A stretch of DNA of 64,000 nt from Psammoneis japonica (lineage: Eukaryota): the NCBI GenBank assembly GCA_008632985.1, contig QPGO01000059.1:186001-250000 (forward strand), read 5' to 3'. Each line of letters starts with the position of its first letter. Position 1 is the stretch's first letter. Positions 3,911-26,440 of this stretch are shown piece by piece. The notes below the pieces were generated by a model, which was given only the letters and a program-made list of their open reading frames with translations, had not been told where the DNA came from and did no database searches. The position numbers and the translations under genes were made by a program.

Positions 3911-6900
3911 GTTGTACTCTAGGATCGCTCTCGATCGTCATCGTGTTAAAAAAAGTGAGTGGGTGGTGGATGCTCTTTGAGATGACCAAGAAGTTTTAGC
4001 AAGAACCTGGCGGTGTTCGACACCATGATTCCTTGGTTCATTTGCATCCATCAAGCTCCCAGAATTTGCCTGTGCAAAAAAAAAAAGCACAATCTGTTGA
4101 TGCTTGTGTTGAAGACACGGCAATCAGGTGCCATGCTGCCATTTTGTTGGTTGCTGCACATGCCAGAGTCTTGGCCTTGTCTTCAATTTCAAGACCAAGA
4201 CTGTCATGTGGGATGATGTTGCTGTCCCCCACACATCCAGAAGGATTGCAGAACCAGCATGAAACCAAAAGGATTGTTGGACCAGCGTGAAACCTCAAAT
4301 GTTGAACTCACCAACAGGGCTTAGCCTGTTTCTGTGCTGGTGCTGGCTGCCCCACATTGACAGACTTGTGCCATTTCAAGCAATGAACATGACAAGCACA
4401 ACTGTCAGAAGTTGGCATTGGGGTGCAATCATTTGTCTGAGAGTCAAAAAGATGACCCATTGGAGCCATTTGGTCAGCACCCCTGGCCCTCCAACTGAAC
4501 TGTGAGTCAAGCCTTGTTGTGCCAAAGCACACACCACACCTCAAGTTCTTTGTCCTGTTGCAAGGAAAGAAGTTGATGAGCTTGAAAACATTGGAGTCAT
4601 TGCTCAAGATGCCACTTCCAAGTGGGGCGCACCTTTTTTTGTTCTGACCAAAGAAAATTGCAGAGTTCATTTCTCAACCAACTTGCGGCACCTCAACTCA
4701 TGTCTCACATGCCATCATTGCCCAATGCCAAGCCCCAACAATGTGATTTGGAAGATCAACAGGCTCACATGCACCACCTGCTTTGATCTGAACCACAGCC
4801 ATTGCTGTTGACTGTGAGCTGAGCAAGCTTTGATCTGTCATCTTGCTGAGGGGCAAGAAGTGTTGCTGCCTTTGTCTCCCACAAGGAGCCATGCCTTCAA
4901 GCAAGAAAATCTTTCAAGCTTTCATGAACCAACACTGCTTCAGCAACTTGGGAGACACTGCTGCTTTCTTTGACAACATCCTTTTGTTTGCAAAGTCTCA
5001 ACCTTTGTTCAGCACCTTCAACAAATCAAGGTCAATCTTCAATGGCTGGGCACTGGACACTGGAGACAAGAACAACCTTTGAGCGCACATTGAAAGAACT
5101 TTTTTCACTGCTCCTGAGGTTGACTTCTTGGGTCATCATGTCACAAGGAAGGGATTCACACCTCAGAAGCAAAAGACTGTTCCTGTGCTTTGTTCTGCAT
5201 CTCTAAAAAACAGAAACCAGCTCAGATCATTCAAAGGATTTGTGGATTTCTACAAAAAATTTTGGCGCCTCTTGCAAGCTGCGTTGTCTCTCCCCAGATC
5301 AAGCTTCCATGAACTGAGGTTGAAGAACAAGCCTTCCAAGCCATTGAGAAAGGCATTGCTTGCGCCAGACATTCTTGTTGCATTTTCCAGATTTAAACAA
5401 GACTTTTTTTTCTTTCCAGTGTGTGCAACTGTCAACTTGTTGGCACCATCTTGACCCAGGTGCTTTTCAATGGCAAGTGGTCCATTGCATTCCACAGCTG
5501 CAAGTCACAGCTGTCTCAAGTGCAGTGCAGCTGTGCGCCAATGTGGGGAAGGAGCTGCTGCCTGCCATTAAGACAATGAATGCTTTTTTTCTCATGGCAT
5601 TTCACTTGGACACCAGCAAGGGCATGTCACGAATGACCACGAAAACTTGACCTTCAACAAGCTCAAGTCACAGAGCATGTCAAACATTGGCGCCCATTGT
5701 TGGAAGAGTGTGGCTGTGCTTTTGAACATCATCCTGGCAAGGACAACACCACTGCCAACTTTTTGAGAGCCATCGTCTGAGATGACCAATGTCTGCCAAC
5801 ATCTTTGAAGAAGCCGTGACTTTGGAGTTCAACTGAAAATGAGTTTCCAGTCACCTGTGACTGTGCTGCAGAGCATCAAGAAGCTGCTGGCAAGTCTCTT
5901 CAGCTCAGCAAGAAAGCCTCTTCCATGCGTGCAAACCACAAGTTTCAAAAACATCAAACCGCTCTGTTGAGTGACAAGATTGTCCTTCTGTTTGCTTTGT
6001 CTCTGGCTGTGTTGTTGCGTTGGCATCACAATTCTTTCTGCAATTTTAGAGCCAGCTGCACCCACACTGCTCTTGCTCCCCACTTCTGCACTTGGAATGT
6101 GCAAGAGCTGGTCCACCGTTTTGTCCATGAGCACCAGATTTGTCAGAAACAGAAATGCACCATGAAAAAGTGTGGCAAACAGCTGCCACCAGATGTCACA
6201 CATGAGCCATGGCAAGTTGTGCAAGCCAATCTCTTTGGCCCCTGGACATTTGCTGACATTGGTGGCATTGTCCAGTTTGTCAAGGCCATCTCTGTGATCG
6301 ACGTCGCCGATGCTTGCTGGGGATCTCAAACTGTCATCACACAGCTCCAAAACCTCCATGAGCCAAAAACATCTCATTGACCACAGATTGTGCATGGTTC
6401 TGTCATCATCTGTGATCTGAGTCAGTTGTTTGTGACAACAGATTGGAGCTCATGTGCTTGAGTTCACAGACCAGCTCAACAGAGGTGGGAAGTTGAGCTC
6501 CCAAGCCAGCAACAATTGAGAGTCCTCAAGCCAGTGCAGTTGTTGAGCACATCCACCAAGTCATCAGCAACTCCACACAATCAACAGACATTGGCTCTCA
6601 ACCTTTTGATTGCTCAACTGTTGACAGCATGCTTCAACCCGTGGTGCTGGCTCTCTGCGTGCTGGTGCTTTTGCCAGCACAATGCAGCCTTTGTGCCAGC
6701 CCCTCTGCTCACATCAGAGTGCACAATGTCACAACATCTGCATGTGTGATAAAAACACATTGCCACATTGTAAAACCCACTTGTCTGCACATGACGGTTT
6801 TTGTCATTTAGCCAATCATTGGTCTCCTGCTGTTCTTCATGTTTGAACACAGATGTTTTTTAATTTTTGTGCTCTGCCTTTTTCGCAACAACTGACAATC

Positions 6901-7554
6901 TTTAATGACAAGCCAAACATTGCAATTGCGTGCAATGCAATTTTCATCATGTAAAGTGTGCGCCAATCATTTGGTCAATGATTGTGCTCCAATTTGCCTG
7001 GTCGTCCGCATCGTCCTCTTCATTCCATGTGTCTTGTCTGCTCTCTTGCAAGAATTTCAAATGTGCCACTGCCGCGTTGGATGTTTCCTTTTCACCGTTC
7101 CAAAAAAGCCACACTGCATGTCTTGCATTTGGGTGAACATCATCGAGAGGAAGAGGTCCCTTGAAACGCCGAATTGCATCGCTGCTCCCCTCTTGATGTC
7201 GTGTCGTTGGCTTCTTTTTCTCTTTCTTCATTTTGCCCATCCTGTTTTTCTCTTCCTTCTTCATCTTGATGCCACCTGTTTTCACCGTCTCTGGCGTCTT
7301 TCCATCCGAATCATTCTTTTTCATCAATCCTGTTGCCGTCGCCTTCATTGTCTCTTGTTGTTGTTTTTTTTTCTGTTGTGTGTCACTTTGTTTTGGATCC
7401 ATGTTTCTGACTTCTCTCCATGCCATCTCTGCTTCCGAGTGTTTCTTTGTGATTGTTTGCATGCGTCACTTGAAGGCACCCACGTGTTCTTCATGTGCCT
7501 TGACGTGCATGCAGAAATCCATGTTGTTTTCCAGCACATGCACCCTTTCTCCTG

Positions 7555-8619
7555 ATGCTGTTTTGCACAATGTTTTCTTCCATCAATTCTGCACTCCGCA
7601 TTGACCTTTCCCGGTGCAATCTCACGCAGGATTTCCCTGGGAGAAGTTGCACACGCGTCTGGTGGGTTTTTGTGTTTAAAACTCCAAATCCCACCAGGTG
7701 CGCATGTGACTTCTCGCATGCACCACTCTGGCACATTTCTGCAGAAACCAGATTTTTTGGTGTTGGAACAGCAACCATGGCGCCGCGTGACCTGTCGGTC
7801 GCCTCTCTGTTGCAAGACAACAATGATTCCCACCTCGAGGAGGCCGCATTTGAATCTCTCTTTGCCAATGGTTTTGGAGTGATCAATGGCAATGAGCAGA
7901 GCTGTGTCAAAGCGAAAATCGAGACGGTGAAATCCAAGGTTCAGTTCCACCGCGATTCCACTTGTGATCCCTCTCCAAATTGGATCGCGCTTGCCTGTGT
8001 GTGGCAAAAGTCAAAGGGCAGACCTCATTTTTTTGCAGAGCCAATGGCTGTGAACTGCATTGTTGCAAAGGAACTTGGGTGCAAGAGCTTGCTGCACTTT
8101 CTTTCCACAAAAGGATGGAGCCATTCCAGTCAAGGCACCAAACATCCTCATGTGTTGGAGCATCGCCGTGCTCCCAAAGCAGAGGACATGAAAGTCGTCG
8201 GCGACAAGGCAAAATCAACAGACATTGCAACCAACATGATGGCAAAGATTTCCATGTTGTGCAAGCTTCTCCATGATCCTGGATTGTGTGACCCAAAGGG
8301 AGAGCCACTTGTCAAGCACATTGAGCTGAGAAGTTTTGAAGGGAAGGTTTTGCATTGCGCGCAATGCCTTCACATTGGTTTTTTGATTCTTCGTGACAAG
8401 ATTCCACTGCACGCACCTGAAAGGAGTGGTGATTGCGATTGTTGGCTTTGCTCCCTGTTCGGCGAATGTGACGAGACATCGACTTGCATCAATTTTTTGG
8501 AGAATTTCCTGGCTCTTGGTCACTGTGAGATGACCAAAGACGAATGCCCTGTGTCCTTCCCTGAATTCGTAAAGTCGTTGTTCCACCAACACAAAAATTC
8601 TTGGGCAAAGCCCATGTGA
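7555..8619 (+). pseudogene. Cargo ORF of the TIR element, unknown function (TpA-mutated)
   Basis: 354-aa ORF inside the TIRs, with no Tyr and excess Cys/His. The real start is probably the ATG near 7777. Confidence 0.45.
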
Positions 8620-8896
8620 CCAGCGATGCTCGATGTCGAGCGAGAACAAATGCGTGCAACACACGTCAATGAGACTCTTTTAAGATGTGTGAAAATTGAT
8701 CGTGTGGTTTCTGCCGCTGACGATTCTGGCAAAAGCAAGGCCACAAGGGATCATTTTGAGGCTATGTGGAAAGCCAGGCTTCGTGACTTTGCCGCTCAGT
8801 GCAAGAAGAAAGAAGCTGGCAATGCAATTCCATCCATTGCAAAAAATGCTCGGAAACAAAAAAATCCAAATGGCATGAATCCATCACATTGTTTGT

Positions 8897-11800
8897 TTGA
8901 TTGTTTGTCCTCCTCTTCTCATCTCCAATTCTTCCATTCTTCTTGCCACCTTTTTAGCTGCCTCCCTTTGCTCCTCAAGCCCCAGTCTCAAAAACCCCAA
9001 AGATGGCGAACCTTCTGATGTTTCTCAGAACAAATCGCTGATTCTCCAAGATGTGCCGACTCTCAAGGAACAATTTGAATGTTTCCAAACAAAGTGGTCG
9101 ACCCTCGGTGCAACTTGTCAGTCATCTCCTCCTCCGCCAGACAATTTCACAAAAGAAGAGCTTGTGAAAGTGTTTCCTGAACCATCTCCGTTTGCGATTC
9201 CGGGTGAGGTGAAGTCACAACATTCTCACCTTGTTGTCTTTGAGGAAACCCCCATTTCCGGTTCCTTTGAGGGGAGCTGTGTCAAGCACCAGTCATTCCA
9301 CAGCATCTCCGATTTCTGCTTGGTGAATCACCTCCGCAAGTTTGTGCATGGATTTGAAAACGGCGTGGCTCCCAACAATCCGACGCAAGAGTTGATGGTT
9401 GCGATCATTTGCCCAACCCAGTCAACCTCTCACGGACAAGATGCATCAGAAATGCTTTTTTGGATTGCGACTCAGTGTGTCGTCGACACTCCGTGCAGTG
9501 TTGGAACATGGCGAGCCGAACGAAAAAAGGGATGGACCAGAATGCAAGTTGCGCTGTTGGATCTGTTTTGGTTGTTGTGGCCAGAATTACGAAGTCGTGG
9601 ACGGTGAGTTGGCTGAAGCAGGACCTGCTCACAAGCCTGGTGCCATCTTTGGCAGGGACAAGTGGGAGAAGCTTCCAAAGGATGTGCAGCTGATGATGGC
9701 CTCAATCTTGGACGCTGCGCAACTCTGTGAGGACAAAATCAATCTTGTTGCTTTGAAAGAAATGCGTTCCTTCTATGACCCGCACCATGATGGTCTTTTC
9801 GTGGCTGAGCTCTGCAAGATGGTTGGAGCCAAGCATTTTAGAAAGGAAGGCATGGAAATTCAAGAGAAGTGCATCTCGTCGTCCGGCGAAAAATCCGTTA
9901 ATTCGAACACCGAGCTGCACATTGACAAAGAGGATTGTGACATGGATGGGTGCACCAAGACTGGTGCTCCTTGCTTGTCACTGCGAGACGCTGTTGGTCG
10001 CTCTTGGTCGTTGAAGGTTGTCACTGCATCCAAAGGTGATGCTGGAAACTGTGTCAGTTCGGCACATGGGCATGCCGAGCTCCGATCGCGTGTGCATGGT
10101 CATTTTGCAAAACTTGATCTGTCACATGCTGCAGAAATGATGAGACACCGTGGCCCTTGTCGTCCTCCGTCGGGCAAGCTGACCCACAGAAACATCAAAG
10201 ATTTTTTCCTTGACCCTCACTCTGTGTGGGTGGAAGAGGAAATTGGCAAGCCAAATCTTCCGTCTGACACAGTTGAATGTCCCGTTGTTGTCATGCCGAG
10301 GAAACGTCTTCCGTTTCTTGCCATCATGAAGGACTTTAATTTCTCGTGCGGTTGTTTGGCAATCATCGACAACCTTGATGAGGTTGGTGCACACAATTGC
10401 TTTCGTTGCGCCGTTGTGGCTGGGCATCAAACCAGATTCTCCCGTTTTTGCTGCTTGTTGTGCAACACAGATGCTGTGAAGCGTCCTTTTGTGGCTGGCG
10501 ATTGTGTCCTTCATTGCTTCAGAGAAGCTGCAAGGCCATTCAGCAGCATTGCGGGGGATCGCAATGACCGACGCATGCAGAGCCCGGGACTCGATTTCGA
10601 GGAGGTTCATGTGGCAGAGTGCAGGACAAAACTTGACGGTTTGATGGACTTGCTTGTTGGCGGACTGGTTGTCATCATGGGCTGGATCAATGACAATGTT
10701 GGCAAGCCAACGTTTGACCACAAGGTGATCGAGGACATGTTTAAAACCGTGGTCAAAACATGGGATCATGCGGGCGCTGATTGTGGAGAGTTCAGATGCA
10801 TGAACTCTGCACAGGTGTTGATGCTGTGTGGCACAGGGATCCATGCTCACCCTGACCTTCTTAATCTTGTCTGTCCGGCAGCCAAGTTGGGAGCGGTGAA
10901 GCAAATGGAGGAAATGAAGGTCCCGGTGGAGGAGCGCGATTTACTCTTGGAACGGACAGCGGGTGATTTTGATTTGGAAGACTGTGGAAAGAATGGCCCA
11001 GTGTCTTCACTGTGTGACCTGAGTGCAGCTCGTGAAAAGATGGGAATCTGCGATGTCTTTTGTTGTGGACAGCATCCATTGCTCTTGTTCTCTGATGGGC
11101 AATCAATGATCAAGCAGTTTGGAAGGTGTGAATGGGAGCGCCAGCCCCACTCGTGTCGATTGATGAAGTTCGAGCCGAACTGGAACGGCAAAGAGAGGTC
11201 ATTTTTTCATGGCAATCACATTTGTTTTTTGTCTGATTTTGCTGACATTGTCACATTGAATTCTCGTTCTAACAGGAAGAAGGCCGCCGGTGATTTGTTG
11301 TCATTTGCAATGAACAAAAGTGACGATTGCAAGGAGGAGTCAATTGACGAGAACACAAGCGAACTTCCAACTGCTTGCATGGGTGAAGAGGACAAAAGCG
11401 AAGAGCCTGTTGACGATGAGCACAACCAAGTTGCACATTGCTCTGAGGGTGAAGAGGACCACAGCGACTTGGGAGATTGTTTCACAAGTGACAAAACTGA
11501 CGGGGAAACACACGATGCACTGTGGTTGGGGATGACCCGTCCACTCAATGCAAGGCATCTATCTTCTCAAGAATTGTGCTCTGAGAAGGGGGTGGCCTCA
11601 GTGTCACCTGACCAACACAGGCGAGACGAGGCATGCGCAATGGCATTTGAGGAAACTGACAAAACAATCACAAACGTCGTTCCAACAGTTTCTCTCCAAG
11701 ACAGCCATCCTGATCTGCACTTAAATTGCAGTGTGAAAGCAAGAGATTTCGTCAAGAGAGTCAAGCAGCAGTTTGAGAAAATTGTTGATTTTGACAATCA

Positions 11801-12269
11801 TGGGTTCGACCAAATCATGTTGGACTGCTGCTGGATGCCAGATGGAGAGTGGCGCGATTCTCGTTTTGGGACGACTCAATTTTTCCAGAATCCAATTGAT
11901 CTTCGGGCCTTGCTCTCCAAAAACGGAGAAGGGGGGGACACAGTGATTCCCTTTGCTCTTGCAACCTTCTTCCAATTGTCGGCTGTGTTCGACATGTGCA
12001 CAATGGACAATGATGCTGCAAAGAGCCGTGCAAGCACATTCTTTGCAAGTGACCTCATGACCCAAGAACAACTAGAACGGTGGTTGGGAAAGCCTTCCGA
12101 TCAGGAAGAAGCTCATCTTGGAGTTTCAGAAGAAGACATCAGAACGAAAGCAATGGAAGGTGCTCGTGCCGCACTGCTTCACGTGTGCCACAATGACTTT
12201 GCCAATTCTGAAAGGATCAAATTCATCATGTTTGCAAGAAAGAGCCAGGAAATCACTGTGAGTGAATGA
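8897..12269 (+). pseudogene. Large multidomain cargo gene of the TIR element; possible HxD dioxygenase-like region and C-terminal SAM-methyltransferase-like domain
   Basis: Overlapping 236-aa and 956-aa ORFs (probable frameshift at about 9400-9600). Motifs LHIDKED (about 9915), ALWLGM (about 11517) and FDQIMLDCCWMP (11805-11840). Domain calls are by eye only. Confidence 0.45.
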
Positions 12270-12292: not shown

Positions 12293-15200
12293 TTAGAAAC
12301 AAGTCTGACCAACACTTCCTTCTGTCCTGTGCAGCCCAAACAAATGGGGCCTTTTCTTGCACTTCTGCCACTCCTGGACATTCTTCATAAACCAAAACAT
12401 TGTCCCCAATTGCTTCGATGGGGACAACCCGCAACTCAGGTGAGTGCTGAGTCTTCTCAGGCATTGAGAGCCAGTTGTTTCATTTGTGATCAAGCTGCCA
12501 GCGACTGTCCAAGTCTGTGTGCTGATGCCATTGCCTCACAGTTCTCTGGTCAGCTTGACAAGCAGTTGGATGGACCACTGCAAAAATTGATCCTGGGTCT
12601 TCCTGTTCAAAGAAACACAGCAAACGGGAGGGAAACTGTTGGCTGCCCTTTCGTGTGCCAAAGGTCACATGGGCACAGTCATGCCATGGGCCTTCGCTTT
12701 TGTAATTGGGGTGCGCACGGTGCGCATCCCTTCCGTTTGCATTGTAAAACTCTGTCTTGCAAGTCAGATGTGTGTTTTCATCATCTTCACCAACACAATC
12801 CTCCCACTTTTCTGACATGAAGTTTGGCAACACAGGATGAACTTGGCAACGAGTGTGCAAGCTGTTCCACTCAAACGTCACAGCGCGGATCCCTCAGTTG
12901 CAGGTGAGAGTGAACACACTTCCTCCCAGCGTGTGATTGTCCATCCTGACTCTTGATGTTTCCTTTTTCCCAGTTGGCAAAATCCAACTGTCAGCTGAAA
13001 TTGTGGCGTTGAGCCTCATTTGGTCCTCCGTGCGTGACACGACCTGCTTCAGAAAACTGCCGAGGTTGCATTGTTGTGTGGCAGATGATGGCAGCTTGAA
13101 AAAGTCTTTCAAGAGACACTCCCCCAAGCCTGCGTCAAAGTTCATCGCATGTCGGCAACAATGAAGAAACGCCAGGAGATGGAGTGTTTCATGAAGCTTT
13201 TGAAACTTCCGCCCGCATCCTTCTGTTCGCGGGACGAATTGCACTGTCCGGTCAATGAGGAGACGGATTTTCTTGTTTATTTTCTGAACAGATGAGCTGG
13301 GAGTTGCGCTTGTGATGGGTGGATCGCCTGGCCTGTGCCATGCGTGGAAGACAAGAAGATCCTCGAGCAATTGAATGAATTGCCGGACGCTGCAGTTGAG
13401 TCTTTTTCCCTTGCATTTTTTCTTTTTTTGGTTGTCGTCACCATCCTCTGCCTCGCTCTCCTCTTTCTCATCCTAATTTTCGTCCCAGTCACCCTCTTTG
13501 GACTCCTCCGACCTTTCATCGTCAGAGTCCAAGTGCTCACCAGGTTGGTGGCAACTCTCAAAGTTTGCTTTGGGCATCTTGCGATTCTCTGGAACAATGG
13601 GTTCATCTGCGTCCTCGTCAAGGAAGCATGACTCACATGCGTTTCGTCCCTCGCTGGTTGACAGGAGAAGGTAGAAAACAAAAGCCATTCCAGCCCAGTG
13701 GTGAGAGTTGAGGAAGGTGAGCAACGTTGCTCCTCCTTTGAAGTTTGTTTGCAAAAAGGATGTTTTGCAAGTTGACCGGTGATTGCTGAAAATCCTTTCC
13801 ACTGTGCTGTCCACCTCACTTGCGACCACAGGTGTCATGCTGTCTACAAATGAATTGATCACCCTTTTCAAGGTGCCGTTTTCAAAGAGATGCATCATGT
13901 CGCTTGCTGTTGCAAGGGCAACGCCATGTGGTTGTGCGCCAAAGTCTGCCTCAAAAAGACAGTTGGCAGGTGCGTTGTGTTGCTCAAGGTGATGCAAGAT
14001 GCCCAACCAGTGCTTCCTTTTTCTTGGTCTGATCTGTTGTCATCGTTGGCCTCAGTTTGCACTTGTTGGAGATCCAGTCCTCAGACAAACTCACATTCAA
14101 TCCATGGGTCGTCCAGTTTGTTGAAGCCAGTGAGGCAAAAACGACAGCAATGTTGACGACAGTTGTGACCTCCGCATCGTCCGACAAGACAGTCACCACT
14201 TTTTGCATCTCCCATGATCAGAACGATCAGTGGGATTGCGTGGAGGTGTCGCATCTCATCCCCTCATCGCACGCATGTTTTCATGCCTCCTTTTCTCATG
14301 ACTTCCAAAAGTGGCTCCAAAATGACATGCAAGCAAGTGTGGCAGTCTCTTGACGAGCGTCCCTTCTCCGCCTTGCGATTGTTTGAGAAATTTTTTGCTG
14401 CAGATGACGACATCTTTTCCAAATCAGGGAGATGACCAATTGGTTTCCAGACACTCTTGTCCGACCATTTGTTGAAGGCAACATGCGCAGAGGTCATGAT
14501 CACTGGCACTCCGCAATGTGATCCCATCCCTTGTGTCCCACCAGTCTTGTCGAGGCAAATGACATTGCACTCGAGAAATTGTTTCTCCGGGTCAGTTGTC
14601 CGTTCTTCGTAACTGCGCCTGAACCACTCACCCGCCAAAAGGCACTTGTCATCCTGTCCCTTCGCTTTGCACTTCCCAAAAGGATTGTCTGGATCGGCCA
14701 CATTCTCTCTGCTGCACCACAGGTGAGGATCGAGCAAAAACAGTTCCCAAACCTTTGTGAAATCCCATCTTGGCACTGACACTCGTTTTGGCAAACCGGT
14801 TTTGAAATTTTTGGTTTCTAGAGTGACAGGAATAGACTCGCTGGGTGGAAGAGGGAAATGCTCAGTCAAGGTGCACATCAACTCTTTTCTCCTTGGCAGA
14901 ACTGTGCCAAGCTCAATGTTGCTGTTCCCAGCGTGCCTCTCAATGAAATCAACAATGCAGTTGCACAATTCCAGGGGAGCACCACGTGTGTCCATGAGCT
15001 TCTTGCACAACTCTGCGCAAGCTCCGTCAAGATTTGTCAAAGAGGGAGCAGAAGCCAAGGCCTCTTCTGCAGGAGTGTGATTCCTGATCCCCAAACGTTG
15101 ATCCTCATCGTGAACATCCTCTTCCTCCTCCATTGTCACATCCAACACTGCAGCAAAGGATTGACCACCGCCAACATCCAAATCGTTCATTGCCAAAAGT

Positions 15201-15478
15201 TCAACTCCATGCATGCTGTGGTTTGATGAAATGGAGGACATGTCATCCATTCCATGCGGAGCGTCATCCGGGGAGGGGAACAAGGGGCTGCTGCTCGGAT
15301 CACTCGTTGAAGATCTTGGGAATCTGCTGTGAGCAGATCGCCTCGGATGGGGTTCGTCATCATCAGAGGACGAAGAGGAAGAACCACCACTTTCTTTGGG
15401 TGGCCCCTCCATTGTGGCAGGAATGTCACTTTGATCTGGGATCAGATCTTGGGTTTGCAGCTCTTGGCGTGATTCCAC
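12293..15478 (-). pseudogene. Plavaka-like transposase, broken by stops and frameshifts
   Basis: Collinear motifs ICLDKTG, WKPIGHLPDL, IMGDAKSGD, SDMMHLFENG, FQKLHETLH, NFDAGLGE..LKDFFK and RAHPNYKSEGPWHD. Confidence 0.75.
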
Positions 15479-16259
15479 ATGATGACATCACTCGTGCACA
15501 GTGCGTGATGGCTTGATTCGCACGATCCACAATGCGAACGCACGATCGATTTGATGCGATCCAAATGCGAACGAATGGGGATTTTGGCAAGATTCCCCAT
15601 TTGCACGATCCCACTTTCTCTGCTCTAAACTAGCTCACAATTTTCACAACGACAAAGTCGCAACACATCTTCTTTTTCAGCACCTGGCACATGCATGGGG
15701 CACAGCAATTGGGCAACTGAGTGACTTGTTGGTGAGTGTCTCCAATGGCAGGCCATTCGCAAAAAACTTTTGCCACACCCGGGACAGAGAAGAGGGTTTC
15801 CGTCCATTGTCAATCAGACAATGTTGACAGGGCCTTCATCAAGACTCATGCTTGTCGTCCTTGTCTTGTGGATGAGAAGGGAAAAGAAGAACAACACGCA
15901 AAAAATGGCGGGAAATTGGCAAACATCACATCATCTTCCAGATTTGGATGATTCTTGTGGGCATGACGTGTCTGCATTTTAATTTTTTATCTGGCATTTA
16001 CAATGAATGTTGTGCTTTTTATTTGCTGTCAAAATGCAGGACATCATCTCCGTTGAAATGCAATGACAGCCATGTCAAAAAGCAAGTTGGACTGTTCGTT
16101 GTTGTGTGCAAACACATTTTCAAATTTCAGTGTTGCTGACAACAATTTGTGCAATGTCACAGAGAAAAACAGAGTGGCTGGCTGTCTCAACACGACCCAA
16201 ATGATGGTTGCACTGTTGAACAGCAACACTCCTCTCATCGTTGTCGTGAAAAGATCAAG

Positions 16260-17566: not shown

Positions 17567-18223
17567 CTTGACCGATGAAATGCTTTTCTTGTTTAAAATG
17601 ATGTTTGCGAAAATCAACAAACCAAGGATTGTGTGGCAATGCAATCACGCGTTGGCATGTGGCAACAAGGTGGGGGCAGACACAGCGATGTGGGCGCAGT
17701 GAAAAACAGCACACATGATTCTTGGCAAGTCACTGCAACATTGGTGTGGCAAACTTGCAACCAGAGGTTGGCCTGTCATTGTGTGACAATAATTTTTTGC
17801 AATGTTTCGACAAATTGTCATCATGCAAATCTGCACATTTTTGACATTTCGTGCACTCTGATGCAGCTGGTTTTTGGTCATGACACATCTGGCCAATTGG
17901 AAGTTTGTCAACAAGTGTTGCACTCAAAATGTCCTGTGCAACAACACACATGAAAATGCCGGCCACTTGCCTTGTGGCTGCAAAGCTGGCAACCAAGTTT
18001 GCACAACCACCAAGGACGACGTCCAATGCAAGCAAGTTCTTGAACCCTGAGGAGGGTCCTTTTCACATTGTTCGCAATCATGCCAATGGCACAGTCACCA
18101 TCCAGTGCTCTCCTGACGTTGCTGAATGGATGGACGTCTGTCGACTTCACCCTGTCTTCTATCTGCTGCTCTAGAGCTACCACTAGCTAGAGAGTAGAGA
18201 GCCTGCCCAGTTGGGGAAGCGAG

Positions 18224-18413
18224 TGCCGTGGGGGTGTGTGTGTCTTCTGTGTGCGTGTTCTGTCCGTACGGTCTCTCAAGTGATTTTCAAGAAGATGTTT
18301 CTCCGTGTACACGTGTTTTCAATAAGTCATTTCAATGTAATAAGTAATAAGTCTTTTCAATGACTTATTAATGTATCAGGGTTCGGTTTCTGATCACGTA
18401 AGTACGTTCTACA
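18224..18413 (+). repeat. Putative 3' LTR of Gypsy copy 1
   Basis: Follows GGGGAAGCGAG, starts TG and ends TTCTACA (end approximate). Homologous to 26121-26301. Contains the inverted repeat AATAAGTCATT...AATGACTTATT. Confidence 0.65.
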
Positions 18414-18567
18414 CATGATGTAGCTCTGGAGGTCATCTTCTGTGTCCATCTCGTCTCACAAATCAAATTCGAGCATCTCTAACAATAACAACTCTACATT
18501 ATCAACTATCACTTGGCGCCATTGGGCAGTGTCATAATCGAGTTCTGAGTCATGTGATCAAGAAGCC

Positions 18568-19101
18568 ATGTTATTCAAGCAACTTTTATTGCCACTTCTT
18601 CTAATTTTATTATGGACCCTACCGGTGTCGCTACAAGCTACCATCCGAGCAGTCGCCGAGGCTGACACAACCCAGTGTGAAACTTGTGCTCTGCCCGCCA
18701 ATAGTGGTCGCTGTAGGGCTTATTTTCCGCTGTGGTTCTTTTCCTCGACAACTGGATTGTGTGAATCCTTTGTATATGGCGGATGCGGGGGTAATGACAA
18801 CAAGTACGAAACCAAAGAAGCCTGTGAAAGCAACAATTGTCTAGCATGTCCTGACATTCATTGCATGGTGTGTGCCTTCCCTCCCAAGTCGGGTGATTGT
18901 GAAGCTGCCATTTCCAAATGGTACTACAACCCCAACACGCTTTCCTGTCAGGAGTTTCTCTGGGGCGGGTGCGAAGCGGGGAGCAATGCCAATCGGTTTG
19001 ATTCGCAAGCAGACTGCGAAGCTTTTGGTTGCAGGAGTTGCAATCCAGAGATTCAGTGCTTTTGCACACGGGGACCAATCATCAAAATCCAGTCCATTTA
19101 G
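18568..19101 (+). CDS. Secreted two-domain Kunitz/BPTI protease inhibitor, copy B
   Basis: Signal peptide plus two Kunitz domains; close paralog of copies A and C. Confidence 0.9.
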   Translation: MLFKQLLLPLLLILLWTLPVSLQATIRAVAEADTTQCETCALPANSGRCRAYFPLWFFSSTTGLCESFVYGGCGGNDNKYETKEACESNNCLACPDIHCMVCAFPPKSGDCEAAISKWYYNPNTLSCQEFLWGGCEAGSNANRFDSQADCEAFGCRSCNPEIQCFCTRGPIIKIQSI

Positions 19102-20053
19102 CGTTGCATTGTAGATTACAATCTTTTTAGTTCAGAAGAGTTTTATTTTCCCTTCATGCACCCTTTTTAGTGCCTCAAACACTCAAGAGCATGCAAGTAG
19201 CACGAAAGCAACACGGAAAACTGCCCTTACGCTCCCCTTTATAGTTCAGAGAACAACTCATGCACGGGACTCTTGATAATTCTTCCCCAAAAAGGTCAAG
19301 GCGGTAGCACTAGGACTCTGGGTATGCGGCAAAATACAGTGTAAATATTCGACTTTCCTTGGGAGGCTTCTTCCAACCGAACTTGACGCGCAGAGCAATC
19401 AAGAAAAGATTGACATTGTCGATATCACCCATGCTGTTTCGTTTTGACGCTGATAAGCTGCACGATCGGGCAGCTGCTTGTCCCTGCATACGAGGAGGGC
19501 CTTCTTCCCGTTCCTTGTCGAGCAATAACACCAATTACAGGCTTGACATCCTCTTCATTCCGGACAGTAGACGACATGCTTGACTATTTCCCGAAGCACG
19601 ACTTCGCAGTTTACAAGTGAAGACAATATAAAAAATGTAGTCAAACGTGTGCGTGTACGACCTAGACGCTTCAATGACATCTCGTACTCGACGCAAGCGA
19701 CCCAGGAAAAGTGCGGAGGCACAATTGTTGGCTGCGGAAGCACATTGCTTGAGAAACGCCGTCTCCACCTCGATCGTTTCCCGGACGAATAGGTGCATGC
19801 GAGGTTTCCTTCAGCCCCAAGCCCGTATTCTCCGTTTGGTCACTGTCAGTGGAAGTCGCCATGTTGACATTTGGCGTATTGGTCCTTGCATCGTATTGTG
19901 AATCTTCACAGATAGTGCTGGTAGTGGCTGCTGTCTGTAATATGATCACTCCGGATCCACATCGTGTTAAGAAGTTTTTGCAAGAACCTGGCGGTGTTCG
20001 ACACCATGATTCTCCCGTTCATTTGCATCCATCAAGATTTATCGACCGCTAGA

Positions 20054-20908
20054 CTAAGGTTTACAACGGTTTCTGCGTTTGGACCGTTTTGATGGTCGCT
20101 CCCACCACGCCACGTAGGCACTTGAGGGCTTTGTATACTCCTTTTCTTCAAAGTCGCTGTCGAGTCGTCCCCGTTGACGTGCTTTTAAAAAAAGCGCAAG
20201 TTGCTTCTTTTGTCTCTTGTCCAGACGTGGCGGTCCACGAATCTGGAGTTGGTCACTAGCATCTTGATGGTTGCTACTGCCACCATAGCCTTGGCTGTGC
20301 AAGTTTGACACATAGTCCGCGACAAAAGATGAATCGCTCAGTTCTAACGAAGCGCCGCTGTTGTCTCTCTGAATGAATGCTCGTCTCATGGTCTCTGCCA
20401 AGACTTTTCTATGCCATGTCTGTTCTCGACGGGGATGGTAATGTTGGTGGTCACGTCGGATACGCTGGAACAATTCAACATCGTTTGTCACAATACACAG
20501 GGATGACCACTTTTCATCAGAACAAATTCGACTGGATTCCTTGACAATGACATCGTCAGCCGTTTGACTCAAGCCTGCAAAAACCACGGCCAATTGTGAA
20601 TTGTACACAAACGCTTGTCGCTCCGTCCCGTGATCCAATACCAAAACAATGTTTAAACACTTCGACATGTGCATGGAGAAATCCTTCAACTTGTGAAGCA
20701 GTTGAGCTTGAGACCATTCGAAATTGTTAGCTCCACGAACGTTATTACCGTCAACAAGCAGTACGGAGGGACAACTCTTGTCTGTGTTGTGTTGCTGTAC
20801 CCAATCATGAAAGATTTGGTTGTTTGTCTTTTTTGATGTCTTCATCAAAAGAAGACAAGCACTCTCAACCGTCATTAAAAAGAGCGCAAGAAGAAGTGTC
20901 GTTAGCAT
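20054..20908 (-). CDS. NYN/YacP-like PIN-fold nuclease, internally deleted copy
   Basis: LLVDGNNVRG, LVLDHG, QTADDVIV and IVTNDVEL. Lacks about 70 aa present in the 27934-29037 copy. Confidence 0.7.
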   Translation of the reverse strand: MLTTLLLALFLMTVESACLLLMKTSKKTNNQIFHDWVQQHNTDKSCPSVLLVDGNNVRGANNFEWSQAQLLHKLKDFSMHMSKCLNIVLVLDHGTERQAFVYNSQLAVVFAGLSQTADDVIVKESSRICSDEKWSSLCIVTNDVELFQRIRRDHQHYHPRREQTWHRKVLAETMRRAFIQRDNSGASLELSDSSFVADYVSNLHSQGYGGSSNHQDASDQLQIRGPPRLDKRQKKQLALFLKARQRGRLDSDFEEKEYTKPSSAYVAWWERPSKRSKRRNRCKP

Positions 20909-21067
20909 TGTGAGGAAACAACTGTCCTGTCGGGCGCAAGGAAAGCAGCAGCAGAATGACCGTAACTGTTGCTGCAGTTAAACGCAATGGGAAATGCAGC
21001 AGCAACGGCGAACGCTGGCATGCCATGGCGTTGATGGGCACATCCGCGCTTGATTCCAAAATTGCAA

Positions 21068-22817
21068 TACCCAGGCTATCCAGCAGTTCCTCCCAGCCAG
21101 AAGAAGAAGAGAAAAGGAAAAGAAAGCAAAAAATAGCCATTGATGTAGTTTTGATACGGGGCGCTGTAGTGCCGCAGCACGCAGTGCAGACGGACGCATG
21201 CAGGTGCAGACGCGCCACGTCCCGGCGACAATTACAAGTGGTGGAGGCAGGCCGTTGAGGAACTCGGGAGCGGCAGGCAGGGTGCGTTAGGCACGTCGAA
21301 TTCGGTACGAAGTGTCATGCGTTTATTTATGCACGCAGAAGGATGTGGATCGCCAACGCCTGGAACACAGCACACAGCAGTCAGCACACCTCCATCAGTT
21401 GTTTGCACACCCTTGGAGCTGCACCCAGAATTGGGTGTGTGTTGTGCTCTCCAGAGCAAAGACCAGAGAAGGGCTGTTCATGCGAAAGCCACTGGGCAAG
21501 GACCTGTGAAAATGCAAGGTCCCAGAAAGCTGCGAAGCCTTGACAAGACTCATGAAGGAGAGAAGCGCCACCCATTTCTCTCAGCAACAATGCGCAGAAG
21601 TGTCAACGCAGTGTGCAAACACAAGATTGGGGTGCCCAACCACTGTGCAACCATCCAGCAAAACCAACCATAAAAATGCAACAATTTCGTAAAATCAAAA
21701 ATTTTGATTGGACCAGCACATTGCGCAGAAATCTGCGCACACACGTCACACAACGTCGAATGGATTTCAACCAACAAACCAAGAGTGCGTGAATGCAAAT
21801 GTTGCACAAAACGGAGCAACAGAGAAAAAAATGGATTTGCAACAACAAACAAAGAAGGCAGACGAGCCAAAGAAAACTGAAGAGGACAAGAAAAGGGTGC
21901 AGACAGATGCAGAACTGTTTCAGTCAGCAACGAACAAAGAAGACGGGGAGAAGATTGCGGCGGAAGAAGCAAGAGCGGCGTTCGAGCTTGCTTCAGGAAA
22001 TTGTGATGTCTCTCATCTGCACTTGTGCCAGACAACACGAGAGTGGACGGTTGTCATGTGGAAGCAACGGCTGTGCCCAGGGATGATTCAACCATGGAGG
22101 AGCTAAAGGCAGCGTGGGCGGCAGCACCACCACAGACTGGTGGGAGATTTTTCACCGAGGAGGAGCTGGAAGAAGCAGGAGCAATGGAGCAGGAGAAGGA
22201 GCAAGCAAGGATCCTACGGAACAAGTGTGGACAGAAATGATGGAATGGGTGCAAGTTTCAACCAACCATTCAGCAAAGACAACCGCGTCAGTGCGCAAAT
22301 TTCACACACTCAGACTTTCACTTGAGCCACCGTGGATCGAGCATGGACAGAAACAATGGAATGGGCACAAGCTGCGACCAACTGTTTGGCAAAGACAACC
22401 GCATCAACACGCAAATTTCGCACACTTTCACTTTCACTTGAGCCACCGCACCTCGAATTAGACAACATCAATGTGCACAGATGAACTCGTGAAACCTCAC
22501 AGAAGACAGAACGGTCAGAAGCAAAACAACCAGCACCGTGCACTGCTCTGGCCCCAATGCATGTTAGTCAGGTCACGTGGGTCGCGCAGAAGTGCGCACC
22601 GTGCAGGTGGCACCCTGTTTCGAAAAAACAACCATTGTGTGCTACAATTGGTTTGGACGCCCGGCGCAAAACTCACTTGACAGGTAAAAAAATGCAGCAA
22701 AATGATTGGTGCAAGCAATCATCACGCCTCTGTTTTCTGACAGTGGCGAGCGCGGCAATCCAAAATCTTTTGGTTTCAGACTTCGATGCAGAGAGTTCCA
22801 CCTGAGAGAGGAGGAAC
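21068..22817 (+). mobile_element. Insertion containing a Helitron-like helicase C-terminal fragment
   Basis: Absent from the homologous position in the third repeat unit (about 29200-29210). Encodes NWVCVVLSRAKTREGLFMRKPL, the PIF1-like motif YVxLSR with Y to C. Hairpin GTTCCACCT-GAGAG-AGGAGGAAC at the right end. Confidence 0.6.
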
Positions 22818-24270
22818 CAATTCCTCCAACAACGTTTGACTCGTCCGACTCTGTTCCTGGTTGTGCGGTGCCAAAGCATGTGCACCACATCTCAAGCTCT
22901 TTGTTCTGTTGCAAGGAAAGAAGTCAATGAGCTTGAAAACATTGGAGTCATTGCTTGAGATGCCACTTGCGATTGGCTGGGGTGCCACACCTTGTTTGTT
23001 CCTGCCAAAGAAAAATGGCAGAGCTCAACTTGTGGCACCTCGACTTCTTGTGTCTCACACGACATCCTCCTTGCCCAGCGCCAAACCCTGGTGATGTGTT
23101 TTGGAAGATCAACCTGCTCACATGCACCACTTGCTTTGATCTCAACCATGTCCATTGTTGTTTTGTGCTTGACCACAAGCTGAGCATGCTTTGTTCTGTC
23201 ATCTTGCTGCGGGGCAAGTGTGTTGCCACCTTTCTCTCTCCTCCCACAAGGAGCCATGTCCTTTTGTTTGCAAAACCACAACCTTTGTTTGGCACCTTTG
23301 ATGAATCAAGATCATCAAATGTTGGCACCCATTGCTGTTGGAAGAGCATGGCTGTGCTTTTGAACATTGTCCTGGCAAGGACAGCGCCATTGCCAACTTT
23401 TTGAGCAACCAATGGCACCATGACTGATGTCTCTCTGGCAACAATTTTGAAGAAGCCCCAAACTTTGGAGCTTTCTGAACATCAGTTTCCAGTCATCTGT
23501 GACTGCGCTGCAGAGAGCATCAAGCTGCCAACAAGTCTCCTCAGCTTTGTGAGAAAGCCCTCCATGCACACAAGCCATGAGTTGCAAAAACATCATGTCA
23601 CTCCATGGAGTGACAAGAATGTCCTTCCACTGGCTCCATTTCCAGCTGTGTTGCACTGGCATGACAGCTCTCTCTGCCATTCTGGAGCCAAGAAGAATTG
23701 CACCCACCTTGCTCTTGCCACCCACTTCTGCACTCAGAGTGTGAAAGCAAGAATCCAGTCATCTGTGACTGTGCTGCAAAGAGCCAAGCTGCTGTCAAGT
23801 CTCTTCAACTTTGTGAGAAAGCCCTCCATGTGTGCAAGCCATGAGTTTCAAAACCATCAAATTGCTCTGTGGAATGACAAGATTGTCCTTCCACTGGCTC
23901 TGTTTCCAGCTGTGTTGCACTGGTGCCACAACTCTCTCTGCCATCCTGGAGCCAATGATTGCACCCACCTTGCTCTTGCTGCCCACTTCTGCACTTGGAA
24001 TGTGCAAGAGCTGGTCTGCTGTTTCATCTGCGAGCTCCAGATTTGTCAAAAACAGAAATGCACCATGAAAAAGTGCAGCAGACTGCCGCCACCAGATGTC
24101 ACTCATGAGCTGTGTGGCAAGTCATGTTGTGTGGGCATTGACCACTTCTTTGTCAAGGCTGTCACTGTCATTGGTGTTGGCACCACTCATTGGGGATCAA
24201 ACTCTCATTGCACAGCTCCAAAACCTCGAAGAACATCTCATTGATTGAGGGTCATGCACGGTTTTGTCAT

Positions 24271-24666
24271 GACGGGTTCCAGTCCTAGGTGGGACTTTTT
24301 GTGACATTGGGCCCGTAGAATTCTACGTGCGAGCTCCGTAGTGAAATTATTAAGCAATGAATATATGAATGATCGCCAACAGAAAAAGAGGCAATTTTGC
24401 GAACGTATCTCCTCCTCCACACTTGAAGTACATTCTTTACAGTATGCCCGGGTATATTCTTTAGACATTAAAGAATATACCCAGCGCATTTTTATTGACA
24501 TAAGTGCAGATAACAGAAAGCCTTTGGCTTCGCAAAACAGGCAGTGTGGAACAATTTTTTATAATAGAACACGTAGAAATGTACGTGCGAAACATACGAC
24601 GGATGATAAAACATAATTATGTCACAGTTCAGCAGTACGAGGTCCCACCTAGAGCTGGAACACGTC
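24271..24666 (+). mobile_element. 396-bp MITE, copy A (TpA intact)
   Basis: TIRs GACGGGTTCCAGTCCTAGGTGGGAC and GTCCCACCTAGAGCTGGAACACGTC; 4-bp TSD TCAT/TCAT. Absent from Gypsy copy 1 at about 6405. Confidence 0.9.
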
Positions 24667-24893
24667 TCATCTCATCCACAGCCCAAATCAGTTGTTTGTG
24701 GCAATGGATTGGAGCTCACGTCTGAGTTCACAGACCTGCTCAACAGCCACAGAGTTGAGTCCAAGTGCCTGCAACAATTGATGGCTCAACTGTTGACAGC
24801 ATGCTTCAGCAATCTGTTGCTTGGGCCCTGTGTGCCAGCGTGAAGGCGGTGCACCAGCCATTGTGTCTGCCCCACTGCTCAGCTGGTTGCTTG

Positions 24894-25793
24894 CCAGACT
24901 CAGGCGGTGTGCACAAGAGCAAAAAAGTGCTGTTTTTGCATGAAATGCACAGCCCAAACTTGTGACACAATTGGCTGATGGCAAAAAAGCACAGACAACA
25001 ACATGTCAAGACAGGAAAACATGCAGAGAAAGGTGTTGTGCGTGTGCCTGCATCAGTGTTTCTGAAGATTTATCAGGTTCGTCATTGCGAAATGGTGCCA
25101 CAAGATGAAAGCTCAATTTTTCCTTGAGAGCAACTTGTGCTCACATCCATGCACTTGCACAAAACACACACGAGTGTTCTTTCACACAAATGCGATCATG
25201 CAACATGAATCATGCCAAACAACTCTTGTGACACAGGCTCGCAATTGTGACTCAATGGCTTTGTCTGCATGTGCGTTGAGCAATGAACTGTGTGACAGTC
25301 TGGTCAAGAAAATTGTTGGTGCCACAACGGCGTTAACTTTGGACCCTTTCATGCTGTTTTCTCAATGTCAATGACTGAGAATCCTGCACCAGTCGACAAT
25401 TGGGAAATGGCTCGCGTGACAAAGGAAAAGAGATGGTCTTCCTCAGCATCAAGCCGGGGGCAAAGCAAGGCTGGCTGTTGCCTGTGAAAGCTGCAGTCAC
25501 CATGGTGAAGTGCAAATGTGTGCCACAGACTGCAACAATTGTTTTTCATCATGCACGGCTAATTTGTCAACTGTGTCGAATGACGCGGTCCTCATGGTGC
25601 CCTTCGATTTTTTTATGAGGCCAAAAAGGGGGGCCACCATGGCTGCTGAAAGCCATGGCTGTTTTTGTTTCTGTTTTTCTTGTTCATTGGAGCTGAAGTG
25701 ATGAGCACAATGTTTGCAACTCAAACATTTTTGACATCATGAAAAGCTTTAATTTTTCGCGAAAACGGGCATGTGCGTGCCACCCAAGTCTGG
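24894..25793. mobile_element. About 900-bp non-autonomous TIR element (possibly hAT-derived)
   Basis: Imperfect TIRs CCAGACTCAGGCGGTGTGCACA and TGTGCGTGCCACCCAAGTCTGG interrupt the Gypsy integrase QLVF codons. No clean TSD. Confidence 0.6.
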
Positions 25794-26440
25794 TTTTCAG
25801 TTGTGACATGGTCATTTCCATGACGCATCTGACCAGCTGGAAATTTGTCAACAAGCATTGCACTCAAAATGTCCCATGCAACAATGCGTGTGAAAATGCC
25901 GGCCGCTTGCCCCGTGGCTCTGCAAAGTCGTCGACGAGGTCTGCTCAACCACCCCGCCCAGAGTGTCCAGCCAACGCATGTTGAGCCCTGGGGAGGGTCC
26001 TTTTCACATGATGGTGCAGTCACCATCCAGTGCTCTCCTGATGTTGCTGAACGGACCGACGTCCGTCGACCTCACCCTGTCTTCTAGCCAGAGCCTGCCC
26101 AGTTTAGTTGGAAAAGCGAGTGCCCCGTGGGGGGTGTGTGTCTGTCCGTGTGCGTGTTCTGTCCGTGTTTCCCAGTGATTTTCAGAATGTTTCTCCGTGT
26201 TTTCAATAAGTCATTTGCGTGTAATAAGTCTTTTCAATGACTTATTATGTGTCATGGTTCGGTTTCTGATCACTTCTAAGTAGGCCCTACTACGTTCTAC
26301 ATGAGTCATTCATTCTACGAGACCTGGAGATCGGTCTCACAAATTCGAGCATTTAACAGAACAACTACTACATTATCAGCTATCACTTGGCGCCATTGGG
26401 CAGTGTCACAATCGAGTTCGAATTATGTGATCAAGAAGCC

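Follow-up and report, generated by a model that had tools for sequence, protein, structure and literature searches.

Probable TpA-directed hypermutation of silenced mobile DNA in a genomic window of the diatom Psammoneis japonica

We analysed a 64,000-nt stretch of the genome of the diatom Psammoneis japonica (contig QPGO01000059.1 of assembly GCA_008632985.1, positions 186,001 to 250,000), here called the window, in which four blocks of largely transposon-like DNA have lost nearly all of their TpA dinucleotides (written TA below) and are enriched in TG and CA. The composition and paralog analyses cover this single window of one assembly. We think it likely that the TA steps of silenced mobile DNA were converted from A:T to G:C in place and on both strands, by a process of the type recently described in the chlorarachniophyte Bigelowiella natans and with adenine deamination as its likeliest chemistry. 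What can be read from the sequence supports a conversion that is in place, TA-specific, two-stranded, limited to regions, dependent on context, long-lasting and independent of duplication.

TA-depleted blocks and the direction of change

Blocks were mapped with per-kb dinucleotide tables and a 200-nt segmentation of the window, and composition was pooled over the blocks (27,454 nt) and over the rest of the window (36,546 nt). The blocks hold 101 TA, an observed/expected ratio (o/e) of 0.06, against 1,419 (0.56) in the rest. TG (2,933) and CA (2,837) each reach o/e 1.68 in the blocks, compared with 1.16 and 1.21 elsewhere, and AA (1.30), TT (1.25) and AT (0.82) are not depleted. These values bear out an earlier note on this DNA, which had reported near-absence of TA in 4.0-18.2, 21.3-26.1, 44.8-46.5 and 57.0-64.0 kb, an excess of TG and CA, persistence of AA, TT and AT, and ordinary TA in the neighbouring DNA; the interval 9901-10335, which it gave as free of TA, is so, with the flanking TAs at 9899 and 10337. 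GC-biased gene conversion was ruled out, as G+C is 48.4% in the blocks against 47.1% in the rest and AA, TT and AT are unaffected. A profile of TA and CpG (CG) of the kind that the note had proposed genome-wide, made across the window, confirmed the TA depletion and revealed a depletion of CG of which the note had said nothing: CG o/e is 0.44 in the blocks, unevenly (0.1-0.75 by kb), and 1.00 in the rest. A further stretch that was TA-poor by the segmentation threshold, 37.2-38.1 kb, is G+C-rich host sequence with a CG o/e of 1.15 and lies outside the finding.

The blocks are sharply bounded. At 18160, 21328, 46515 and 57031, TA drops from one per 6-15 bases to none for hundreds of bases, and only the left side of block 1 is graded. 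With such edges, and with content that is transposon-like or unclassified plus captured gene fragments, the TA loss is confined to discrete regions. Blocks 1 and 2 are paralogous in their left parts (4519-6519 vs 22868-24781) and at their right ends (17879-18160 vs 25819-26095), where the TA-poor state stops at the same homologous position in both. Together with a host unit they form a tandem array: a Kunitz/BPTI-domain gene (plus strand) and a NYN_YacP-like gene (minus strand), tandemly triplicated, alternate with the TA-depleted blocks. The paralogous ends and the array suggest that block 2 is a shortened duplicate of block 1 produced by chromosomal duplication.

Four comparisons with TA-normal relatives (a pair of element copies, a host paralog and two proteins) argue that TA was the starting state and was turned into TG or CA in place. 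The most direct is a 396-bp element with terminal inverted repeats. Its copy in block 2 keeps all of its 32 TA and arrived after the block duplication, because the block 1 paralog has an empty insertion site near 6400. At the same 32 sites, an old copy in block 4 keeps 1 TA and has 14 CA, 10 TG, 4 AA, 2 GA and 1 TT; thus 24 of the 31 changed sites are transitions to CA or TG, with a minority of TA>AA/TT. Changes of A>G or T>C affect 24/64 A/T bases within TA and 16/168 other A/T bases (Fisher p 2.5e-6), so that the TA-context excess which the earlier note had wanted looked for among element copies is present in this one pair. Of 18 CG sites, 6 are kept in the old copy and 10 now read CA or TG. 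Whether the flank sets the direction of conversion was also considered for this element, and was dropped since 32 sites are too few.

The host paralog gives the same picture at the graded edge. In the last 290 bp of copy 1 of the Kunitz/NYN unit (3761-4055), none of the five TA of copies 2 and 3 remains (3 CA, 1 TG, 1 AA), while CG is kept at 9 of 12 sites and other sites have changed at 13 of 182. In the 160 bp farther from block 1, TA (2/2) and CG (8/8) are fully kept.

The protein comparisons come from two unrelated block genes, in which none of 23 consensus-Tyr columns retains Tyr: 11 read Cys (TGY), 4 His (CAY) and 6 Phe. Seventeen of these columns lie in a long open reading frame (ORF) of block 1 (7 TGY Cys, 4 CAY His, 5 Phe, 1 Val), in which other conserved residues are mostly retained, and six in a methyltransferase-like fragment of block 4 (4 Cys, 1 Phe, 1 Ala). 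The long ORF, noted earlier as a 956-aa frame at 9399 with only 2 Tyr, indeed has 0.2% Tyr (2 residues), compared with 2.5-5.0% in its 15 best relatives and a median of 3.0% over 94. The earlier claim that conserved Tyr positions read Cys or His thus stands for these two genes; the reverse transcriptase, integrase and helicase to which it had been extended were not found in Pfam scans of 83 block ORFs.

Strands, timing, sequence context and CpG loss

Between the block paralogs, positions with TG in one copy and CA in the other number 49, and every other kind of double difference occurs 4 times at most in each pair. Independent conversion of a palindromic TA (or CG) in the two copies would produce such differences. 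When differences at pyrimidine-purine (YR) steps are set aside, the block paralogs diverge by 7-15%, in comparison with 5-11% for the host paralogs. Taken together, these figures suggest that most of the conversion took place on the chromosome, after the block duplication. TG and CA follow each other in a random mix (runs test z -1.7 to +0.7 in 5 block segments), suggesting that both strands were hit site by site and not in long single-strand tracts; strand-coordinated or processive editing was ruled out, there being no runs of TG or of CA. The earlier observation that TA>TG and TA>CA occur on one strand is therefore upheld, the two being interleaved. Its conclusion that the change was made on double-stranded chromosomal DNA also holds as far as the evidence reaches, in that a DNA-transposon relic, a gene fragment, a non-coding element and a host flank are all hit, but the retroelement identifications on which it partly leaned were not recovered.

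These data bear on the possibility that no mutation occurred in place, the elements having been TA-poor on arrival, or selection having removed TA, or RNA editing of the ADAR type having been fixed by reverse transcription. TA is under-represented even outside the blocks (o/e 0.56, as above), and the preference of ADARs for a 5' U, also stated in the accessible portion of the B. natans preprint (10.64898/2026.01.13.699255), would fit the editing version. However, a TA-normal copy of the 396-bp element exists, TA loss extends into 290 bp of host paralog, and the 49 TG-versus-CA differences place conversion after a chromosomal duplication; by these three observations the explanation appears largely refuted. 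In addition, neighbouring sites are hit on both strands, which one edited RNA strand copied back cannot yield; the affected sequences include not only a DNA-transposon relic but also a non-coding element and a gene fragment that is not of transposon origin; and selection is implausible on dead, broken genes. We regard an origin of this kind as very improbable.

The 101 surviving TA are evenly spread and strongly biased in context (chi-square 167, p 3e-31). Expressed as residual TA density in the blocks relative to non-block density, survival is 0.68 for TTAA, 0.35 for CTAA/TTAG, 0.13 for CTAG, 0.125 for GTAA/TTAC, 0.075 for ATAA/TTAT, 0.045 for CTAC/GTAG, 0.041 for ATAG/CTAT, 0.012 for ATAC/GTAT, and 0 for both ATAT and GTAC. 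YTAR contexts, above all TTAA, escape, and RTAY is purged. Among products the excess is greatest for TGC/GCA, which is a lead only, since it depends on the ancestral composition.

The purge also appears to have been maintained. Blocks 1 and 2 contain no RTAY, with 874 sites one transition away from it, and 35 YTAR, with 881 such sites. Transitions at other C/G sites since copies 2 and 3 split amount to about 2-3% per lineage (the three-way parsimony spectrum behind this figure took in non-homologous sequence to the left of copy 1, and was used solely for the rates of copies 2 and 3). Between 17 and 30 regenerated RTAY would be expected in blocks 1 and 2 (P<=2.6e-8), and their absence suggests that the purge of RTAY ran until recently or still runs, with YTAR refractory to it.

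Repeat-induced point mutation (RIP) of ascomycetes changes C to T mainly at CpA, creates TpA and stop codons, and is triggered by duplication. It shares with the diatom blocks dinucleotide-specific transitions on both chromosomal strands, aimed at mobile DNA and carried to saturation, a leak of a few hundred bases into the flanks, and a diagnostic dinucleotide skew. The two differ in direction, since RIP raises TpA through C>T and the blocks lose it through A:T>G:C; in effect, since RIP makes stops and TA>TG/CA cannot make in-frame ones; and in trigger. The Kunitz/NYN units beside the blocks are 80-97% identical over 0.3-1.7 kb and keep a TA o/e of 0.4-0.64. Duplication itself is thus not the trigger, because adjoining host duplicates this similar have kept their TA. 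The phrase 'reverse RIP', used in the earlier note, is a fair image of the chemistry and fails for the trigger.

Loss of TA was faster and more complete than loss of CG. At 9-12 kb, CG o/e is 0.6-0.7 while TA o/e is 0.04-0.07, and the leak zone at 3761-4055 lost 5/5 TA and 3/12 CG. The domain of TA loss is probably slightly wider than that of CG loss, by roughly one nucleosome length. Dense CG was seen to extend 100-170 bp into the TA-poor zone at three edges (44603-44736, 57035-57197 and 21334-21357). We treat the CG decay as a separate process because it is slower and less complete and starts inside the edge of TA loss; the usual explanation would be that 5-methylcytosine is deaminated in repeats that are methylated. 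Such deamination would share with the blocks the change of CG to TG or CA, but it cannot remove TA, and CG loss in the blocks is patchier and slower than TA loss. As a side observation, GCGC is spared in the blocks (about 70 seen, 66.8 expected), and most other CG contexts stand at about 40-70% of the non-block expectation.

Contents of the blocks and their surroundings

From the blocks we extracted 127 stop-to-stop ORFs of at least 90 aa. Pfam was searched with 83 of these at E<=0.01 and, at E<=1, with 35 of the 83. Only three matches resulted: a Plavaka-like transposase, S-methyl_trans, and a weak GATase_6 (E 0.0024). The scans, of 83 of the 127 ORFs, gave no match to a reverse transcriptase, an integrase or a helicase, which hypermutation may hide, and identified no viral gene. 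We read the blocks as old silenced mobile and junk DNA that holds a Plavaka-like transposon with a cargo gene, its deletion derivative, small inverted-repeat elements and captured gene fragments. Coordinates are collected in Table 1.

Table 1. Blocks, elements and genes located in the window.
Feature	Position	Strand	Remarks
Block 1, TA-depleted, 14.4 kb	3761/3951-18160		left 3761-4055 is the end of a host paralog; right edge sharp, at 18160
Block 2, left part, TA-depleted	21329-24270		paralogous to block 1 4519-6519
TA-normal island in block 2	24271-24666	plus	396-bp element, terminal inverted repeats
Block 2, right part, TA-depleted	24667-26084		last 270 bp paralogous to 17879-18160
Block 3, TA-depleted, 1.9 kb	44622-46489		between host genes; no protein-family match
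Block 4, TA-depleted	57032-64000		extends to the last base of the window
396-bp inverted-repeat element, old TA-depleted copy	59519-59914	minus	in block 4
Dead gene, unannotated family	7834-12266	plus	pieces 7834-8517 and 9116-9364, ORF 9396-12266
Plavaka-like DDE transposase relic	14267-15487	minus	PF18759, E 1.3e-4; scores 21.8 bits, short of the curated cut-off (26.3)
Homocysteine S-methyltransferase-like gene fragment	60992-61669	plus	in block 4; S-methyl_trans 27.6 bits, cut-off 22
Kunitz/NYN host unit, copy 1	2461-4055		TA-normal in 2461-3760; truncated at 4055, where block 1 begins
Kunitz/NYN host unit, copy 2	18522-21067		within TA-normal control stretch 18161-21328
Kunitz/NYN host unit, copy 3	26396-29205		within TA-normal stretch 26085-29205
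Ankyrin/MYND gene ORF	33394-34593	minus
Aconitase B gene	38218-40737		839 aa, clean ORF

The change of TA to TG or CA creates no in-frame stop, as TAA>TGA exchanges one stop for another, and it removes TAA and TAG. On both strands together the blocks contain 106 TAA, 51 TAG and 1,332 TGA. This removal of stops, with none made, explains why long ORFs are so numerous in every frame of the blocks. Hypermutated genes stay open and lose Tyr, the codons ATA, TTA, CTA and GTA and codon junctions are altered, and TATA-like and AATAAA-like signals are destroyed.

The methyltransferase-like fragment has 0 Tyr in 226 codons and 107 relatives. None of its eight conserved Arg is kept, as CpG decay of CGN codons predicts. 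A search of PDB sequences with it gave no match. All of its organism-named relatives are bacterial (e.g. Bradyrhizobium), at 30-40% identity, and the fragment may derive from a horizontally acquired gene.

The dead gene of block 1 belongs to a family with many relatives. Its long ORF (9396-12266) has 957 codons from stop to stop and 94 homolog clusters in a full HMMER scan, and the upstream pieces are collinear with one relative, P0122, by tblastn. A word-based homolog search with the 957-aa ORF found no match, no Pfam match was obtained in scans of 12 and of 30 relatives, the family profile matched no PDB sequence, and no relatives were confirmed in metagenomes (searched with the long ORF and P0177) or in IMG/VR (searched with P0122). 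Four database relatives, P0193, P0170, P0177 and P0158, also carry Cys or His at consensus-Tyr columns (CCCHFCHIYF in P0193, FYCCHFYCICA in P0170), which suggests that hypermutated copies, from other loci or organisms, already stand in the protein databases as 'proteins'.

Intact relatives gave confident structure predictions (predicted local distance difference test, pLDDT, 85.6 and predicted TM-score, pTM, 0.82 for P0129; 85.0 and 0.79 for full-length P0123). Foldseek against the PDB found nothing (best E 0.27). By VIA-align, TET enzymes were nearest to residues 159-431 of P0123, ahead of AlkB-type and other 2-oxoglutarate oxygenases: TET2 (Z 9.5, root-mean-square deviation, rmsd, 4.6 over 206 aligned residues), NgTET1 (Z 8.9, rmsd 3.8, 167 aligned), CcTet (Z 7.2, rmsd 5.0, 184 aligned) and CMD1 (Z 6.8, rmsd 4.7, 196 aligned). 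Nearest to residues 434-760 was phage PaMx11 gp46/PUGT, a 5-phosphomethyl-deoxyuridine glycinyltransferase (Z 7.4), followed by helix-hairpin-helix glycosylases. The typical best Z of this method is 7-8, and most values for the family lie at or barely above that level. An HxD motif and the Arg of an NSR motif are each present in 26/26 relatives, and the conserved distal His of an iron triad was not seen in the alignments; the window copy retains HID and has GCTKT in place of GYTKT and ASK in place of NSR. With Z scores this marginal, intact relatives may fold as a TET/JBP-like dioxygenase joined to a glycosylase-fold domain like PaMx11 gp46/PUGT, and the family may be a candidate eukaryotic, transposon-borne thymine-modification enzyme.

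Transposon-borne TET/JBP genes, including those of Plavaka elements, have been described in fungi (Kojima 2025, PMC12730594), and in dinoflagellates 5-hydroxymethyluracil (5hmU) produced by a TET/JBP homolog marks and silences transposons (PMC11572971), according to the accessible portions of these papers; we found no report of transposon-borne TET/JBP in diatoms in the literature searched. In the window too, a gene from a family with a possibly TET-like fold lies beside a Plavaka-like transposase, and the common theme would be a thymine- or cytosine-oxidising enzyme tied to transposon silencing. The family differs from the fungal genes in its lack of a Pfam match, its added PUGT-like glycosylase-fold domain and its diatom host.

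The remainder of the window is gene-dense nuclear diatom DNA. The best relatives of its aconitase B, at 65-75% identity, are diatom proteins (e.g. from Phaeodactylum, Seminavis, Cyclotella, Epithemia and Thalassiosira), none closer being on record, and the other host genes encode an adenosine kinase, a monomeric isocitrate dehydrogenase, an ankyrin/MYND protein, a sugar transporter and a BTB/MATH protein. Host genes have long clean ORFs, as in the aconitase. At 41439-41603, where TA is normal and the DNA is intergenic or genic, two adjoining 83-bp copies that are 100% identical form a perfect tandem duplication. An array at 32745-33642, directly upstream of and overlapping the ankyrin/MYND ORF, comprises three units, each about 305 bp long, with 83-95% identity among them.

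Related hypermutation, possible chemistry and meaning

TpA-specific hypermutation of integrated nucleocytoplasmic large DNA virus and virophage DNA has been reported in B. natans (Mettrop et al., 10.64898/2026.01.13.699255), the one account of regional TpA hypermutation that our literature searches turned up. According to the accessible portion of that preprint, 230 of 231 changes in two viral inserts of mutation-accumulation lines were A>G or T>C, all of those on TpA; the mutation rate of the inserts is about 1000 times that of the remaining genome; hypermutation occurred in only 11 of 15 lines; the genome carries 124 TpA-poor, CpA- and TpG-rich clusters; TpA-poor coding sequences are enriched in transposon Pfam domains; and an ADAT2-like deaminase is proposed as the agent. 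That portion mentions neither diatoms nor stramenopiles nor CpG. The statement in the earlier note that no published description was known to it for diatoms agrees with our own searches, in which no report of regional TpA loss in diatoms was found, but more generally it is superseded by this 2026 preprint.

The diatom blocks appear to carry the same mutational signature, on the same kind of target, as B. natans. In both, the changes are restricted to TpA, which becomes TpG or CpA, on either strand; the hits fall in discrete regions of non-host DNA, with clusters poor in TpA and rich in CpA and TpG as the long-term trace; and transposon domains, enriched in the TpA-poor coding sequences of B. 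natans, have their counterpart in the transposon-like blocks. The process is not constitutive in B. natans, and in the diatom an unmutated young insert sits inside block 2. The two organisms are far apart, B. natans being a rhizarian and P. japonica a stramenopile. The blocks are near saturation (TA o/e 0.06), in contrast to a Rho of 0.45 for the B. natans viral region as given in the same portion of the preprint; the targets there are viral inserts, and those in the diatom, where viral genes were not detected, are a DNA-transposon relic, gene fragments and small inverted-repeat elements; and CG, not a word of that portion, is also lost in the diatom blocks. The tetranucleotide rule, the edge behaviour and the evidence against a duplication trigger go beyond the B. 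natans account, which for its part includes a measured rate. From the preprint's numbers we computed 231/(8,469 TA x 3,132 generations), or about 9e-6 per TA per generation. At that pace saturation of a region would take roughly 1e5 generations, with CpG decay lagging far behind; this matches the order seen here, TA loss ahead of CG loss.

For the process itself, we propose local targeting, in which the A:T pairs of TA would be converted to G:C on the chromosome and on each strand independently. An enzyme would deaminate the adenine of 5'-TA-3' in DNA to inosine, which is read as G, so that a hit on the top strand would give TA>TG and one on the bottom strand TA>CA. The agent is presumed to be an enzyme that finds silenced DNA through a mark on its chromatin or through RNA; it would erase RTAY, largely spare YTAR and leave TTAA nearly immune, would reach no farther than a few to about 300 bases from the block edge, and would have continued or recurred long after the first sweep. 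Among chemistries we favour adenine deamination because the changes are pure transitions, efficient, and require a 5' T, although we would put this specific step at a little short of even. The target of TadA/ADAT enzymes is A34, which follows the invariant U33, partly in a UAC context, and ADARs prefer a 5' U. ADAR, in the hyper-editing of double-stranded RNA, and AID/APOBEC enzymes, in the editing of viral or retroelement DNA, provide further parallels, as base deaminases directed against invading nucleic acid, the former making A>G changes with that 5' preference, but ADAR acts on RNA and APOBEC on C, and the changes here lie on both strands of the chromosomal DNA of non-retro elements and of a host flank. 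Pol-eta-type WA>WG synthesis, another candidate of the earlier note, is disfavoured, since it should have depleted AA and AA is not depleted (o/e 1.30).

Real mutation through thymine chemistry is an unlikely alternative, if the foremost one. A TET/JBP-type dioxygenase would oxidise the T of TA to 5-hydroxymethyl- or 5-formyluracil, possibly modified further, and the modified base would pair with G or be misrepaired, giving T>C on either strand and hence CA or TG. In trypanosome telomere repeats, base J replaces T before A, and 5-formyluracil yields T>C. The family of the dead gene of block 1, with a possibly TET-like fold (P0123: TET2 Z 9.5, NgTET1 Z 8.9), a second domain resembling PaMx11 gp46/PUGT (Z 7.4) and HxD in 26/26 relatives, would supply such an enzyme, although most Z values are at the common level of 7-8, the best Foldseek E is 0.27, the distal His was not seen and the window copy is dead. 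A transposon's own gene would moreover be an odd agent for damage in unrelated blocks as well, and 5hmU is weakly mutagenic. The fungal transposon-borne TET/JBP genes, Plavaka included (PMC12730594), and the silencing 5hmU of dinoflagellate transposons (PMC11572971) lend the idea precedent, but dinoflagellate repeats dense in 5hmU are mostly less diverged (PMC11572971), as far as the accessible parts of these papers report.

It is also conceivable, and in our judgement quite unlikely, that the pattern is an artefact: true TA (and CG) carrying a modified base at palindromic steps would be misread by a signal-based basecaller, and the consensus would pick TG or CA. Misreading of this kind would reproduce the random interleaving of TG and CA, their discordance between paralogs, the context rule and the sharp edges, and a thymidine-hypermodification-like gene family is present in block 1. 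Against this, the clean host ORFs (such as the 839-aa aconitase) show that the assembly is not raw and rich in errors, and the same signature appears among de novo mutations in Illumina-sequenced B. natans lines, and in some lines only (10.64898/2026.01.13.699255, in its accessible portion). Other public members of the cargo family (P0193, P0170) likewise have Cys or His at Tyr columns, and the blocks are old by other measures, with a non-YR divergence of 7-15%, broken genes, and catalytic residues lost by changes outside TA.

Several points weigh against in-place conversion by adenine deamination as we have described it. Its direction is based on one element pair, one 290-bp flank (5 TA) and two protein alignments. 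The evidence comes from one window, and the window does not separate adenine deamination from thymine oxidation; the dead TET/JBP-like, thymidine-modification-like gene in block 1 in fact favours the thymine route or a modification artefact. A TA-rich 396-bp element lies unmutated inside block 2; great youth of this copy may explain that, as may a process that runs in episodes, as in B. natans, or is aimed at specific sequences and not at a whole domain. 'Defence' is an interpretation, as the data show targeting and damage, not benefit. The TG and CA base calls are those of the assembly, and an error there is the main risk to the finding.

To our knowledge, RIP has long been the sole well-described mutational genome defence in eukaryotes, and is confined to fungi. 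What is new here is the diatom lineage and the near-saturation of a kind of system otherwise known from one 2026 preprint. Diatoms and chlorarachniophytes quite possibly, if not quite probably, have in common an ancient defence, dedicated to DNA editing, that tells silenced invading DNA by some mark that is not duplication and erases its TpA continuously, to saturation and under a tetranucleotide rule; in a bolder version, thymine modification by TET/JBP-plus-PUGT-like enzymes, of which the block 1 cargo would be an example, may be coupled to the editing.

If the reading is true, the process would be an A:T>G:C counterpart of RIP, disabling genes and signals, removing TAA and TAG stops and leaving long 'ghost' ORFs. 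Gene prediction, repeat annotation and the divergence dating of transposons would be misled by it, and Tyr-free dead 'proteins' would enter the databases. The sequence rule, the edge behaviour relative to CG loss, the independence from duplication and the candidate base-modification gene family offer handles for finding the enzyme, and the base-editing field would take an interest in one that follows a TA rule and changes A:T to G:C in double-stranded chromatin. Many members of the stramenopile-alveolate-rhizarian supergroup may have the process, which would then shape the repeat landscape of major primary producers of the ocean.

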